Below are positions 5,675 to 52,510 of a stretch of 64,000 nt of DNA, piece by piece (the stretch's first letter is position 1; each line of letters starts with the position of its first letter). The position numbers and the translations under genes were made by a program. This DNA comes from an uncultured Fibrobacterota bacterium (GTDB lineage Bacteria > Fibrobacterota > Chitinivibrionia > Chitinivibrionales > FEN-1185), in contig CAVWBU010000019.1 of the NCBI GenBank assembly GCA_963753345.1, forward strand, positions 86,645 through 150,644, in the 5' to 3' direction. The notes below the pieces were generated by a model. The model did not search any database and was not told the origin of the DNA. It saw only the letters and a program-made list of their open reading frames with translations.

Positions 5675-5865
5675 CTGTTGCCGAGCGTTAGGCCGGACTG
5701 GAGGCCGCGCCAGAGCGCGGTGCCGCCCGGACCCGGCCGCGTACTCGCGGCATAGGGACGAGGCGGCCCGAGGGCGAGCCCGAGACCGGAAGGAGGGCCG
5801 ACCCGAGCCTGAGCAACACCATGAGCGAAGTTGAAGGGCGAAGGCGAGGGGAACGCCCATATTCT
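5675..5865 (+). repeat. intergenic repeat family 1, copy A
   Basis: ctgttgccgaGCGTTAGGccGGACTGGAGG ... GGCGGCCCGAGGgCGAgCCCGAGACCGGAAGGAgGGCCGACCC ... GGGGAACGCCCAtATTCT. Aligns by eye to the six other copies. Confidence 0.85.
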
Positions 5866-5968
5866 TTGTTTGGATTACTATTGCAAGGAGGCCGAGGCCG
5901 GGGGAGACGACCCTTGGAAGTACCCGACGGGGTAAACTTCTCCCCCGCCTCTTTTTTCTTATGGATTA

Positions 5969-7399
5969 CTAATATCTATAATGCTCCGGCTTGTACGGCC
6001 CCTCCACCGGAACCCCGATATAATCCGCCTGCTTTTTACTCAGTTTCGTCAGTTTCACGCCGATCTTTTCCAAATGCAGCCTCGCCACTTCCTCGTCGAG
6101 CTGCTTGGGGAGCCGGGACACGCCCGGCTTGTAGGTCTCCCTGTTCTTCCACAGGTCGATCTGTGCGAGGGTCTGGTTTGTAAATGAATTCGACATCACG
6201 AAGCTCGGGTGGCCCGTGGCGCAGCCGAGGTTGACCAGGCGGCCCTCGGCGAGCAGGTAGATGCAGTGGCCGTCGGGGAAGATGTATTTGTCCACCTGCG
6301 GCTTAATGTTGATACGCTTGACACCAGGGTAATTGTTGAGCTTTTCAACCTGGATCTCGTTGTCGAAGTGGCCGATGTTGCACACAATAGACTGGTCCCG
6401 CATTTTGAGCATGTGGTCGATGGTAATGATCTCGCAGTTGCCGGTGGTGGTGACGTACAGGTTTGCAAAGGGGAGCGCGTCCTCCACCGTGGTCACCTTG
6501 TAGCCTGCCATAGAGGCCTGGAGTGCGCAGATCGGGTCGATTTCGGTGACCCACACCTGCGCCTTCTGCGACGACAGCGATTCGGCCGAGCCCTTGCCCA
6601 CGTCACCGTAGCCGCACACCACCGCGATTTTGCCTGCGAGCATCACGTCCATGGCGCGCAGGATGCCGTCGGCGAGCGAGTGGCGACACCCGTAGATGTT
6701 GTCGAATTTCGATTTGGTCACCGAGTCGTTTACGTTGATGGCGGGAACCAGAAGCTTGCGCGCCTGTTCCATCTGGTACAGGCGGTGCACGCCCGTGGTG
6801 GTCTCCTCGGACACGCCTTTCCATTCCTTCACAACTTCGTGCCAGTGGCCGGGACGCTTCCGGTGCACGTTCCCGAGCAGGTCTTTGATCACGCCTTCCT
6901 CGTGGCTTGCGGAAGAGGAATTGAGCCATGTGTCCCCGTTTTCGAGCTCAAACCCTTTGTGAATGAGGAGCGTGGCGTCGCCGCCGTCGTCGACCACAAG
7001 CTGCGGGCCCTTGTTTCCGGGAAACGTGAGCGCCTGAAACGTGCACGCCCAGTAGTCCTCGAGCGACTCGCCCTTCCAGGCGAACACCGGCACGCCCGCC
7101 TTGGCAATGGCTGCTGCTGCGTGGTCCTGGGTGGAAAAGATATTGCACGATGCCCAGCGAACCTGCGCCCCGAGCTTGACAAGCGTTTCGATGAGCACCG
7201 CGGTCTGGATGGTCATGTGCAGCGATCCGGAAATGCGCACGCCCTTAAGCGGCTGTTCGGCCGCGTATTTTTCGCGCACGGCCATGAGGCCGGGCATTTC
7301 TTTTTCGGCGATGTCCATTTCCTTGCGGCCCCAGTCGGCGAGCCCGATGTCTGCAACCTGGTAGGGCAGGTTCTCCCAGAGGTTGATGTGCGGTGCCAT
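5969..7399 (-). CDS. ahcY: S-adenosyl-L-homocysteine hydrolase
   Basis: 476 aa. [48 protein letters not shown] site [14 protein letters not shown]-terminal [14 protein letters not shown] upstream of the ATG. Confidence 0.95.
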
Positions 7400-7585
7400 G
7401 ATATGTGATCTCCTTGTTGATGGAAGTAAAATGCGAGGGGGAAAAATAGTTCATGCAGAGGGAAATTCAATACAATCAAGATGGGAAGAATATCTGGTGG
7501 GGACACCACTTCGTGGTTTCCCCTGGGGTGCAGCTTCCTTCCGCTGAAGATCAGCGGGAGGCGATCTGCACCCACACCCTTTCCA

Positions 7586-7639
7586 GCGGAAACGTGCGCG
7601 AGGCGCAACGCTTGCGCGTTGCGGGCGTCACGTTTCCGC
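7586..7639. other. nested perfect hairpin between the pfk stop and the ahcY start
   Basis: Outer arms gcggaaacgtg (7586-7596) and cacgtttccgc (7629-7639) are perfectly complementary over 11 bp. The inner cgcaacgc-ttgc-gcgttgcg forms a perfect 8-bp stem. Confidence 0.6.
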
Positions 7640-7806
7640 AACGCCTTCCTGTAGGAATGCCGCTACGCGGCATGGAAAACTAAAAAAGGTTCATCGCAGT
7701 ATCCGGTTGTCTACAACGCGCGGCAGAGGAAATCTCTTCAGTCAAGGCATGTTGTTGCGCTATCCGGTGAGCGGGGGTGGGTTGCCCGGTCTGATGGATT
7801 TCTGCT

Positions 7807-7842
7807 GTCAACTTTCAACTCTCAACTCTCAACTTTTAACTC
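7807..7842. repeat. TCAACT/GTTGA short tandem repeat abutting the pfk stop codon
   Basis: gtcaactttcaactctcaactctcaacttttaactc read directly. It is the reverse complement of the motif at 2457-2521. Confidence 0.7.
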
Positions 7843-50634: not shown

Positions 50635-50833
50635 TTGACTGAAAAAATTCCGTTGCCGCGCGTTAGGCAGGACTGGAAAAATGGTCCCGCTTGAGGCGGG
50701 ATGCCGGCCTGACCACGCCCGAAGGGCCCTCGTGGCAGGCGGCCCGAGGCCGGAGGCCGAGACCGAAAGGACGGCCGACCCCCAGGTAGCATTGCACAGC
50801 CGTGCGATGCTACCTGGGGGAACGCCCAATTCT
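50635..50833 (+). repeat. intergenic repeat family 1 copy
   Basis: TTGACTgaaaaaattccgttgccGCGCGTTAGGCAGGACTGGAAAAATGGTCCCGCttgaGGCGGGATGCC...GGCGGCCCGAGGCCGGAGGCCGAGACCGAAAGGACGGCCGACC-[hairpin cccccaggtagcat...atgctacctggggg, 50779-50820]-AACGCCCAATTCT. Confidence 0.85.
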
Positions 50834-50911
50834 AATTATGGTACTTGATAAAATAATAAGGAGCAGAAACCCATGCCTCTGCTCCTCATCAAATTCTCAA
50901 AAAGGCAATCT

Positions 50912-51937
50912 TTAGAAGAACAACTTTTCCGTGTAATGCTCCCCGCTCTGATACACGACCTTCTTGAGCGCTGCCTTGGGCTTGGGGAACACCAGCTTGA
51001 GGTTCTTTGTCTCGTGCTGGGTGTCGAGTATCTCCGGGTCGATTTTCGAAGACGGCAGCGCCTTGTATTTCTCGCCGTTCACGTCCACGAGGCAGAAATC
51101 TTCCGCCTTGAGCCGCAGCGGATTGTACGAATAGTTGAACATTGACAAGGTCATGTTGGTGGTCCCGCTCACCACCGCAAGGTAAATGTCGAACTTGTTG
51201 ACGCGCGGATCGGGCTTTCCCTCGATCACCTGGGCGTAGCCGGAATAGGTGTTCACATTGACCTTGCGGAGGTTACTCAGGAGGTCGGCGGCGCCCGGAT
51301 ACGCGGGATCGTAGACGAGCACGAGTTGCACGTAGTATTCCGCCTTGAGAAGGGCGTTCACGTCCTTGCTGTCTTTGCCCTCGGTATACGCCTGCGAGGC
51401 CATCTCGTAGAACTGCTTGGTGAAGTCGGCAATGATCTGCTTCTTCCTTGCTTCGATGGACTCCGGATTGTCAACAACGCCCTGCGCCTTGGTGATCCAT
51501 CCGAGCGCGTCGTCCAGCCTGTTGCGGGCGATGCTCGAATCGGCCATGAGGAGGATGAAATTCGCGTACTGCTGCCGCAGGTCCGACGGCATGTCCTTGG
51601 AAAGAAGCGTGTCGATGTCCTTCATGAACAGCTTGATGGGGTCCATGTCGTAGGTGCCTTCCGACAGCACCATGTTGGCCCGCAGAAGCGTCATTTCAAT
51701 GAATTTCTGCTTGAACGGAGTGCTCAGCCTCGACTTGTCGGGATGCGCGTTGAACCATTTCTGGTAGAAAATGTAGGCCCGCTTCTGCAGGGTGCGCTGG
51801 CTGATGCCCTGCGAATGCCTGGCCTGGTTGTACGCCTTGTTGCCTTTGGCTTCATCCGAGGTAAGGGACGAACAGGACGCGAGAAGAAGAAAAACGTTTA
51901 AGTACACCAGTCCGACAAGAACCTTTTTCATTGCCAT
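50912..51937 (-). CDS. lipoprotein, unknown function
   Basis: 341 aa. MAMKKVLVGLVYLNVFLLLASCSS lipobox. Helical-repeat-like N-terminal half. No family recognised. Confidence 0.6.
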   Translation of the reverse strand: MAMKKVLVGLVYLNVFLLLASCSSLTSDEAKGNKAYNQARHSQGISQRTLQKRAYIFYQKWFNAHPDKSRLSTPFKQKFIEMTLLRANMVLSEGTYDMDPIKLFMKDIDTLLSKDMPSDLRQQYANFILLMADSSIARNRLDDALGWITKAQGVVDNPESIEARKKQIIADFTKQFYEMASQAYTEGKDSKDVNALLKAEYYVQLVLVYDPAYPGAADLLSNLRKVNVNTYSGYAQVIEGKPDPRVNKFDIYLAVVSGTTNMTLSMFNYSYNPLRLKAEDFCLVDVNGEKYKALPSSKIDPEILDTQHETKNLKLVFPKPKAALKKVVYQSGEHYTEKLFF

Positions 51938-52075
51938 CCTCCTCAGAATCGATGAGTGTCACGACACCACGGGTTGGACGTAAGTATTAAGTATATAGAA
52001 GATGGTTTTTTCTCAGGAGGTTTGTCAATACAAATTACAATTACAATAGATAAATGTAAATAATAATCCATAGAT

Positions 52076-52256
52076 GGGCGGGGGAGGTATCCCCCTCGCT
52101 CCGGCCTCCTCGGCCTGTGGCCTGCGGCGTCCTCCGCTACCCCCTCCTGGGTGGCCGCCTTGACAAAGCAGCTACGAGACCGTGCATTGTTGTGGCGGCA
52201 CCCACGAGGAGCAGTTGAAAGGTTGAAACGTTGAATAGTTGAAGAGTTTGAAATCA
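52076..52256 (+). repeat. intergenic repeat family 2 copy plus GTTGAA tandem tail
   Basis: GGGCGGGGGAGGTATCCCCCTCGCTCCGGCCTCCTCGGCCTGTGGCCTGCGGCGTCCTCCGCTACCCCCTCCTGGGTGGCCGCCTTGACAAAGCAG...GGCACCCACGAGGAGCAGTTGAAAGGTTGAAACGTTGAATAGTTGAAGAGTTTGAAA. Confidence 0.85.
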
Positions 52257-52308
52257 GGACATGCGGATATTGATCTTATTGCGGATGCCAATTGGCGCGA
52301 GAACGTAG

Positions 52309-52510
52309 TTGACTGATGATTATAACTGTTTGCGCGCGTTAGGGGCGACCGGAGGCCGCGCCAGAGCGTGGTGCCGCCCGGACCCGCCTTTTGTAGAGAC
52401 GCAGCGGCGCTGCGTCTCGCCGAAGGGAATAGGGCCGTGGCGGCCGGAGGCCGAAGGCCGAGACCGCAGGGAGGGCCGACCCCGCAAAGCGGCGGGAGCG
52501 CCCAGTCTTT
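52309..52510 (+). repeat. intergenic repeat family 1 copy
   Basis: TTGACTgatgattataactgtttGCGCGCGTTAGGggcGACcGGAGGCCGCGCCAGAGCGTGGTGCCGCCCGGACCC-[ttttgtagagacgcagcggcgctgcgtctc]-...GGCGGCCGGAGGCCGAAGGCCGAGACCGCAGGGAGGGCCGACCCCGCAAAGCGGCGGGAGCGCCCAGTC. Confidence 0.85.

Follow-up and report, generated by a model that had tools for sequence, protein, structure and literature searches.

Several families of dispersed intergenic repeats are known in bacteria, such as repetitive extragenic palindromes (REP), bacterial interspersed mosaic elements (BIME), BOX, enterobacterial repetitive intergenic consensus (ERIC) and Correia elements, and they are short palindromes or simple hairpins. REP of Enterobacteria is a 20-40-nt imperfect palindrome with a GTAG end, REPINs are moved by RAYT (REP-associated tyrosine transposase), and in BIME the Y and Z units are paired in inverted orientation around a conserved linker. 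BOX of Streptococcus pneumoniae is built from simple tandem modules (A-Bn-C). Here we analysed a stretch of 64,000 nt (the window) from contig CAVWBU010000019.1 of an uncultured Fibrobacterota bacterium, which carried seven full and two broken copies (5' fragments) of a structured intergenic repeat, named fam1. It is much larger than the elements above and belongs to a modular intergenic set of an uncultured lineage in the Fibrobacteres-Chlorobi-Bacteroidetes (FCB) group.

We consider, with a probability of about one half, that fam1 is a lineage-specific (Chitinivibrionales/Fibrobacterota), non-coding, non-autonomous and recombinogenic repeat like REP/BIME or BOX, whose folded plus strand is conserved as the substrate of a factor acting in trans. 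The multi-junction fold was preserved by compensatory change though the copies are only about 70% identical. Such structural constraint across hundreds of dispersed copies implies a specific partner, either an enzyme or a ribonucleoprotein (RNP).

Fold, folding strand and upstream region

The fam1 unit is a cassette GCGYY...RRCGC-CCA with a length of 140-290 nt (median near 165 nt). Its consensus fold, obtained by RNAalifold with hand check, has eight helices on one strand, the plus strand as it was written in a sequence-only reading of the window. P1 (GCGUU/AACGC, 5 bp) closes the entire unit, and a three-way junction bears the variable arm P8. The rod runs in the order P2 (GGC/GCC), internal loop AGGA/GAS(G), P3 (CU/AG), loop GGA/GGA and P4 (GG/CC), with its GA-rich internal loops conserved, and from a four-way junction branch P5 (6 bp, closed by a 4-nt loop), P6, which is long, and P7, which is short. 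Inserts of up to 121 nt were confined to the tips of P5, P6, P7 and P8 and to the position after P7. What had been described as a 7-nt terminal inverted repeat turned out to be the 5-bp helix GCGUU/AACGC closing the whole fold. The conserved 3' end described in the same place was confirmed but had been drawn too short, and it runs on as an invariant CCA and then a T-rich tract.

Compensatory base changes, which the sequence-only reading had proposed to look for in the stems, were found. Among 147 distinct copies aligned with a covariance model (CM), 94.1% of the pair cells held standard pairs against 79.2% after shuffling, changes on both sides occurred in 36 of the 41 pairs, and compensatory cells numbered 757 against 238 in shuffles. 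When the partner was slid by 1-3 columns, pairing fell to 35-46%. The long-range helices covaried as subtype blocks (GCGUU/AACGC with GCGCC/GGCGC, GGC/GCC with GGU/ACC, CU/AG with CC/GG). Because arms swap between copies, many of the double changes are inherited as blocks.

In 119 of 135 copies the plus strand folded more stably than the complementary strand (by a mean of 3.9 kcal/mol), and G-U cells exceeded A-C cells (112 vs 55, or 71 vs 53 without one subtype-fixed pair). Hairpin tips were mostly c(GNA)g triloops (114, vs 12 of the complementary TNC), and GNRA tetraloops were nearly absent. Mini-hairpins of the type d(cGNAg) are exceptionally stable in DNA, and structured RNAs favour GNRA and UNCG tetraloops. 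Because cGNAg triloops dominate, we lean to a folded DNA strand, so that the conserved object would be single-stranded DNA (ssDNA) exposed in replication or recombination, in preference to RNA. The CCA after P1, which was near-invariant (C 0.99, C 0.94, A 0.87), favours RNA. It was followed by the T-rich tract (6.1 T among the 12 positions +4 to +15, against 3.7 farther out), whose onset lies 5-6 nt past P1, and a consensus scan called no terminator at the ends of the plus-strand copies.

These features bring in the main alternative, in which the copies would be multicopy genes for a structured non-coding RNA (ncRNA), with an upstream region of their own and possibly tRNA-like processing. The RNA would end with P1-CCA and a U-rich stretch and would act in trans or as an RNP scaffold, the spread of copies being secondary. 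The complex covarying fold with conserved GA-rich loops and junctions, the better folding of the plus strand, and the invariant CCA with the T-rich stretch behind it are all in agreement with it, and so is the fact that old, diverged copies remained structurally intact, also when they are antisense to both neighbours. Against it, triloops dominate instead of GNRA/UNCG tetraloops, Rfam and ARAGORN gave no match, and hundreds of copies are gained or lost between related genomes, unlike known trans-acting RNAs. The upstream region bears on it in both directions.

TTGAC(A/T), which had been reported 19-21 nt before GCGTTA in three copies, was present at 17846, 50635 and 52309. The motif is enriched upstream of fam1 in general: 50 of 136 copies (37%) had it at -36 to -18 against 3.4 expected, and 34 had it at -26, which is just the distance to the first paired base. 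A conserved upstream region of this kind would suit an RNA gene. But if TTGAC served as a -35 box, the start would fall about 9 nt inside P1/P2, within the covarying helices, because the box lies 26 nt before P1. By consensus scan there was no -10 at 16-18 nt spacing after TTGAC and no sigma-70-type site before any copy in the window, and the Bacteroidetes-type box TAnnTTTG was not enriched upstream of fam1 copies. A sigma-70 promoter made from TTGAC was rejected, since the -10 is absent and the distance is wrong. At least three types of upstream sequence were found, a TGGCGC...TTGACTGAATAGAAT box, a TTGACAATTGTGG box and a T-rich sequence, so the TTGAC box belongs to some subfamilies only; about two thirds of the copies were without it, and some of the upstream sequences are quite different. 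Thus the earlier alternative of a multicopy small-RNA gene family, if read with TTGAC as its promoter, is weakened, although the structured family and the boxes stood, and fam1 is apparently no promoter-driven small-RNA gene. We regard the ncRNA explanation as unlikely, though serious, and it is not mutually exclusive with the folded-substrate repeat that we prefer.

Concerning promoters of this lineage, an invariant sequence GAAAGTATATTTGA was observed upstream of purL in three genomes (window 50296-50345, minus strand; L023 and L025, about 9950-9990; L numbers denote fetched loci). Within it, TATATTTG agrees with TAnnTTTG, the -7 box of Bacteroidetes-type promoters, and such promoters may therefore be in use in this FCB-group lineage.

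Copies, distribution and turnover

Copies were placed by nhmmer, using a hidden Markov model (HMM) built from the seven copies, and by the CM; conserved ends and core were visible across the seven-sequence MAFFT alignment. The seven copies and the two truncated 5' fragments named in the sequence-only reading are real, the former within a few bases (E 1e-27 to 1e-46; 101-163 bits), and its long perfect hairpins were present at 46404-46443 and 50779-50820. A 20-nt 5' motif with three or fewer mismatches matched 3 times, and 0 times in 100 shuffles. From the shuffles and the E-values, the similarity is not GC bias or low complexity. The features of the window are listed below, together with a second structured repeat (fam2), tandem repeats and a nested palindrome, which are treated later.

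5673-5870, plus strand: fam1 copy 1, full (nhmmer E 1.6e-38; CM 141.8 bits)
17570-17761, minus strand: fam1 copy 2 (CM 101.1 bits), subtype B with closing helix GCGCC/GGCGC
17762-17858, no strand: spacer of the A/B dimer, about 100 nt, with two upstream regions inside (TTGACA at 17781 and 17846; from the sequence)
17859-18028, plus strand: fam1 copy 3 (CM 125.4 bits), subtype A with P2 variant GGU/ACC, right arm of the dimer
43556-43730, minus strand: fam1 copy 4 (CM 139.7 bits; alignment), divergent from an SLT/LysM gene (43771-45996, plus strand)
46279-46464, plus strand: fam1 copy 5 (CM 163.4 bits), with P8 an 18-bp perfect hairpin in the fold
50648-50839, plus strand: fam1 copy 6 (CM 134.2 bits), forming the 3' module of a composite some 440 nt long
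52324-52515, plus strand: fam1 copy 7 (CM 116.6 bits), 3' module of a second composite, with a hairpin inserted at the P6 tip
7715-7746, minus strand: fam1 5' fragment, inverted repeat I10, upstream box (CTTGACTGAAGAGATTTCCTCTGCCGC) and GCGTT only, preceded by GTTGA tandem repeats (7800-7845)
11105-11181, minus strand: fam1 5' fragment, inverted repeat I1, first 15 nt or so of fam1, with fam2 at 11346-11440 (minus) upstream
2855-3026 (plus), 3160-3260 (minus), 11346-11440 (minus), 50386-50560 (plus) and 52070-52250 (plus): fam2 copies (nhmmer, alignment, fold)
52214-52255 (plus), 50530-50575 (plus), 7800-7845 (minus) and 11325-11350 (minus): tandem GTTGAA-type repeats
46406-46443 and 52393-52420 in the window, 2694-2721 in L047 and 11830-11857 in L058: palindrome GTAGAGACGYA...TRCGTCTCTAC

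Relatives of the window (L023-L026) were fetched through PurL (76-85% protein identity), and the closest named PurL relatives were from Chitinivibrionales metagenome-assembled genomes (MAGs). Empty sites, another check proposed beforehand, were found in them for each of the four window sites near purL. In 23 kb around purL, fam1 was absent from L023 and L026, and L024 and L025 had copies at other sites. A 341-aa gene (50912-51937, no assigned function) is separated from purL by 616 nt in the window, against 212 nt in L023. By alignment, a single block of about 440 nt, made up of fam2, GTTGAA repeats, the upstream box and fam1, was inserted directly past the terminator T-run of the 341-aa gene. 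This block was present only in the window and missing at the orthologous site in L023 and L025. The genes purQ and SLT abut in L025 and L026; in the window, copy 5 lies within the 473 nt that separate them. At the site of copy 7, L023 had 169 nt only.

Sites were also rebuilt. L022, a contig of the SMAG genome, is syntenic with 50.7-53.6 kb of the window (90-92% identity), and between priA and the 341-aa gene it had the same flanks with a fam1 copy in opposite orientation and differing modules. Its copy on the purL side kept place and orientation, with different P6 and P8 arms. Between L009 and L092, the flanks, P1 and P8 were common, and the central domains were of different subtypes. The identity of copies within a genome was about 70% (median) and reached at most 81% for the window and 95% for SMAG. 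Low copy identity, site differences and swapped arms together mean that fam1 is old and turns over by gain, loss and recombination with the fold kept. An excess of 5' truncation as in retro-elements was not seen (21 5'-partial vs 23 3'-partial matches, mostly split HMM matches or contig edges), and this origin was rejected.

So the earlier suggestion of a MITE/REP-like mobile or recombinogenic element (MITE, miniature inverted-repeat transposable element) is favoured by the evidence, if not in every part. Interspersed, extragenic copies in both orientations, empty sites, a rebuilt site and arm exchange speak for it, and the features of a classic MITE were not found. For the turnover, we propose that some structure-specific enzyme acting in trans would recognise the folded strand and copy or move the cassette, and that homologous recombination and gene conversion among copies would keep them intact and mosaic.

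The 3' motif GGGRAACGCCCA was also observed solitary, with the rest of fam1 missing (L058 10543-10554, L023 8581-8592, L066 7558-7569, L112 6882-6893). Two of these motifs (L058, L023) coincide exactly with sites at which a related genome has a copy, and the solitary motif could be an integration target or a deletion scar.

With a stringent core pattern, the genomes of GTDB species gave 16 loci in the Chitinivibrionales MAG SMAG_U9540 and five in a Fibrobacterota MAG; a single Streptomyces match was taken as chance. A looser pattern found at least 120 metagenome stretches, mostly from a few peat or wetland data sets, and no match among viral contigs, and a phage origin was rejected on this result. 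In the 1.1 Mb fetched, nhmmer gave 210 fam1 matches in 134 loci, all outside long open reading frames (ORFs). Copies were located at contig ends in L006, L013, L022 and L042, as expected because repeats break assemblies. The whole window had 0 matches to Rfam 15 at gathering thresholds, which bears out the statement that no named Rfam family is involved, and the E-value mode for 50300-52600 gave only chance-level matches (E 0.6-8), far below gathering. ARAGORN found 0 tRNA or tmRNA genes in the window. A literature search on the fam1 motif and on repeats of Chitinivibrionales/Fibrobacter gave nothing relevant.

All copies in the window are intergenic, as had been stated, with flanks of ORFs with Pfam support (DUF1697, AdoHcyase, ferredoxin, SLT/LysM, PurQ, PurL, PriA) or of long ORFs. 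Copy 1, which is without TTGAC box, lies between DUF1697 (5077-5616, minus) and AdoHcyase (5969-7399, minus) genes, assigned by Pfam. Copy 2 has a 31-nt insert after P7 and a 3' extension of about 45 nt and is the left arm of the head-to-head A/B dimer. By alignment, the similarity of copy 4 starts exactly at GCGTTAGG. The 3' end of copy 5 is 6 nt from the stop codon of the convergent purQ (46470-47291, minus). The composite of copy 6 consists of fam2 (50386-50560), GTTGAA repeats, an upstream box with TTGACT at 50635, and then fam1; that of copy 7 has fam2 at 52070-52250, GTTGAA repeats and TTGACT at 52309, and priA (52572-54809, plus) is downstream. The upstream region of the 11105-11181 fragment was 93% identical to 52281-52348, upstream of copy 7. 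Some ORFs of 88-133 codons cross the GC-rich repeats (46266-46643, plus; 50391-50792, minus; 17416-17796, minus; 52309-52575, plus); they are probably spurious and a possible source of gene mis-annotation.

Genomic context, partner modules and mobilisation

The flanking genes were unrelated housekeeping genes (MutS, AlaRS, PurA, PolA, RecA, SHMT and others). Among 101 flanking ORFs there were 116 Pfam families, none matched by more than two ORFs, and no enrichment was found. The downstream gene was convergent in 77 cases and co-oriented in 67. A riboswitch or cis-regulatory leader was rejected by these two counts, since both an orientation rule and a regulon are absent. The fam1 3' end lay at a median of 26 nt from the convergent stop codon, and within 40 nt in 43 of the 77 cases. 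On the 5' side the next gene is 270-350 nt away, owing to the other modules there.

This closeness to gene ends raises the possibility of a host-domesticated cis element working on the neighbouring mRNAs, as a stabiliser or terminator in the 3' untranslated region or as a 5' leader, with selection in place for gene expression. Besides the short distance to the next gene, the T-rich tract after the fold is suitable for such a role, a hairpin and a T-run follow copy 1 on its own strand, and two genomes with flanks only 73-79% identical both kept a copy in front of one and the same gene, at 49 nt from the ribosome-binding site and ATG. But there was no orientation rule for either neighbour, and 28 of 124 copies were antisense to both neighbours and as intact as the remainder. 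Moreover, the neighbours are functionally unrelated, relatives are without the element at the same genes, and a T-tract 5 nt past the helix is not a canonical intrinsic terminator. So a cis element seems rather improbable to us. For the mobile, folded repeat that we prefer, the stable fold with its downstream T-rich tract would probably serve as intergenic punctuation near gene ends, ending or stabilising transcripts as a by-product.

The hairpin following copy 1 lies at 5896-5965 (plus), about 40 nt past the copy on the same strand, and consists of GGGGGAGACGACCCTTGGAAGTACCCGACGGGGTAAACTTCTCCCCC and then TCTTTTTTCTT. It resembles a terminator and faces AdoHcyase, which is convergent. The inner 28 nt of the hairpin were met again as an insert within copy 2 (17624-17651) and, in L003 and L008, in the 5' hairpins of fam2.

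The partner repeat fam2 is unrelated to fam1, has a length of about 140-180 nt, gave 63 matches in the fetched loci and had no Rfam match. It has three hairpins, the first with GGGGGAGGTATCCCCC, the second variable and the third with GCTACCCCCTCCTGGGTAGC, and also a stem GCC[G/C]CC...GG[C/G]GGC that covaries and surrounds a conserved TTGACAAAG. Two of its copies form an inverted pair at 2.9-3.3 kb of the window. A fam2 copy was found within 300 nt upstream on the same strand for 49 of 184 fam1 copies, and fam2 also occurs solitary. 

This fixed order and orientation suggests another explanation, a miniature derivative of an insertion sequence (IS), of the MITE type or a palindrome-associated transposable element (PATE), for example from IS200/IS605. 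In it fam2 would be the left end and fam1 the right end or an omega-RNA scaffold, and the transposase would be encoded elsewhere in the genome. As in IS200/IS605, the ends are without inverted repeats, and a duplication was not observed; the fold is strand-specific, with a weak bias of fam1 orientation to the G-rich strand (75 of 124, p 0.02), and the scaffold ends sharply and variable sequence follows. However, where fam2 and fam1 are 0.4-5 kb apart, no tnpA, tnpB or other transposase lies between them, most fam1 copies are without fam2, no omega-RNA or IS605-associated family was matched in Rfam, and no Y1 transposase was matched in 1.1 Mb with approximate queries. We therefore hold this explanation to be very doubtful.

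Further modules were observed beside both repeats. The hairpin GGGGGA(N4)TCCCCC of the fam2 5' end (window 50394-50412) stands alone at about 9800-9830 of L025, in the otherwise empty gap between the 341-aa gene and purL, and may be an independent unit or the site beside which the composite inserted. Between fam2 and the upstream box of fam1 there are tandem repeats of 7-8 nt (GTTGAAAG, GTTGAGA, GTTGACA; 4-5 units), which could be a protein-binding array. Another module (...GCTCGCGAGTCGTCGCACCTTCGCAACGCATCC...) lies upstream of copy 5 (window 46021-46280) and was also seen in L013 (824-1080) and L022 (about 1190-1270, reverse); it recurs beside fam1 copies in the SMAG_U9540 MAG. The palindrome GTAGAGACGYA(N4-8)TRCGTCTCTAC caps differing helices, P8 in some fam1 copies and P6 in another, and also other modules, and has the appearance of a mini-element nested inside others, or else of a shared hairpin module.

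Pairs of fam1 in the order minus-plus and less than 400 nt apart numbered 19 among those listed, two of which have one common right-hand copy. At least 10 of them are two full copies 99-155 nt apart, and no tail-to-tail pair was seen. In nine of ten inspected head-to-head dimers with locatable ends, a GCGCC-type arm was combined with a GCGUU-type arm around a spacer of about 100 nt, and the GCGCC-type arm often has a 45-nt 3' extension. Since both arms point away from the common spacer like divergent genes, the dimers may also be counted in favour of the ncRNA genes discussed above.

One locus (L141, 1-1484) contains an IS3-family IS (orfA/orfB with HTH_21 and rve domains; ends TGCACCCC...GGGGTGCA) with TG...CA ends of its own. 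The fam1 3' half is present on both sides of it, inverted, and the two junctions coincide in their position within fam1. A fam1-targeting IS, with two insertions collapsed in the assembly, is the best explanation. IS1397 and ISKpn1 insert into REP/BIME in a parallel manner. The rve transposase was rejected as parent of fam1, because the IS has its own ends and interrupts fam1.

Several points weigh against our reading. About mobilisation, neither a target-site duplication nor an exact junction was definable at the dimer ends and in the filled/empty pair L011/L058, and the 5' boundary of the mobile unit is uncertain. No mobilising gene was found, as Pfam assigned the ORFs that separate fam2 from fam1, or two inverted fam1 copies, to housekeeping genes (PanB, DinB-like and others). 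Searches by tblastn with IS200 TnpA and Escherichia coli RAYT (approximate queries) gave nothing below E 1 in the window and 146 loci (1.1 Mb). There were no near-identical copies in the window, and thus no sign of recent transposition. About the fold, the model itself guided the alignment, and the pattern that served to retrieve most loci lies inside the element (3' half), by which the conservation of the 3' half is partly ascertainment. The covariation in local hairpins could represent fewer independent events than cells, if they were inherited with swapped arms. The preference for ssDNA comes from the general stability of d(cGNAg) loops, and a non-palindromic architecture with two junctions and conserved loops is more typical of functional RNA than of known REP or MITE.

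Comparison with described elements

In practice, fam1 elements break short-read MAG assemblies and create spurious ORFs (46266-46643, 50391-50792), and they remodel promoter and terminator regions of core genes, e.g. purL and priA. The covariance model, the defined folding strand and the conserved loops are handles for finding the partner of fam1.

Integron attC sites are like fam1 in conserving structure over sequence, in the folded single strand and in the variable tip, and the fam1 5' GTTAGGC fits GTTRRRY. However, attC is RYYYAAC...GTTRRRY and fam1 is reversed (GTTAGGC...GGGGAAC), with pairing limited to 5 bp. Neither intI nor an array of cassettes accompanies fam1, whose copies are scattered and point both ways; attC was rejected because the motif order is wrong. 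The likeness to tRNA is limited to the P1-CCA 3' end. PATEs of IS200/IS605 and the omega-RNA scaffolds of TnpB/IscB share asymmetric ends, strand-specific folded DNA and a scaffold of 100-250 nt reaching the element boundary, while fam1 has no associated tnpA, tnpB or iscB, no Rfam match, and CCA with a T-rich flank in place of a guide-like variable flank.

MITEs (Correia/NEMIS of Neisseria, Nezha, Chunjie) are also non-autonomous, 100-200 nt long, polymorphic in insertion and nested. They are defined by terminal inverted repeats (TIRs) of at least 10 bp, target-site duplications and a parent IS. As none of the three was found, fam1 does not appear to be a classic MITE; the complementarity between its ends is only GCGYY/RRCGC (5 bp), against the criterion of about 10 bp or more for a TIR.

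A new structure-defined class of element is a tentative and somewhat unlikely further possibility. In it the folded cassette of about 165 nt, either an RNA ending with P1-CCA or an ssDNA with c(GNA)g-capped arms, would have its GA-rich loops and junctions read by a so far undescribed enzyme system of Fibrobacterota, which would propagate the cassette or make use of it. The cassette would then be the substrate of a new type of structure-specific recombinase, or else a large multicopy family of new ncRNAs or ribozyme-like RNAs, and the system would also include fam2 and the A/B dimers.

Among repeats of the known sorts, BOX is like fam1 in being modular, combinable, intergenic and non-coding, with predicted stable structures and both orientations. 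It differs in its simple tandem modules with no multi-junction fold, in its unrelated sequence and in belonging to another phylum. REPINs have RAYT, and none was found for fam1 with the approximate queries in the window and 146 loci. REP also differs in its short palindrome, against about 165 nt, a non-palindromic sequence, three-way and four-way junctions and GA-rich loops in fam1, where GTAG occurs only in the nested palindrome capping some arms. On the other side, REP/BIME and fam1 are both high-copy, strictly extragenic, GC-rich and folding as a single strand, both are often near gene 3' ends, and an IS3-family IS appears to insert into both. The BIME Y/Z pairs correspond to the A/B head-to-head dimers, and fam2, the GTTGAA repeats and the 3' extension are like the accessory motifs in BIME mosaics. 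So fam1 is a previously undescribed repeat that would belong to a known general sort, as it behaves like REP/BIME, but it is larger and more elaborate.

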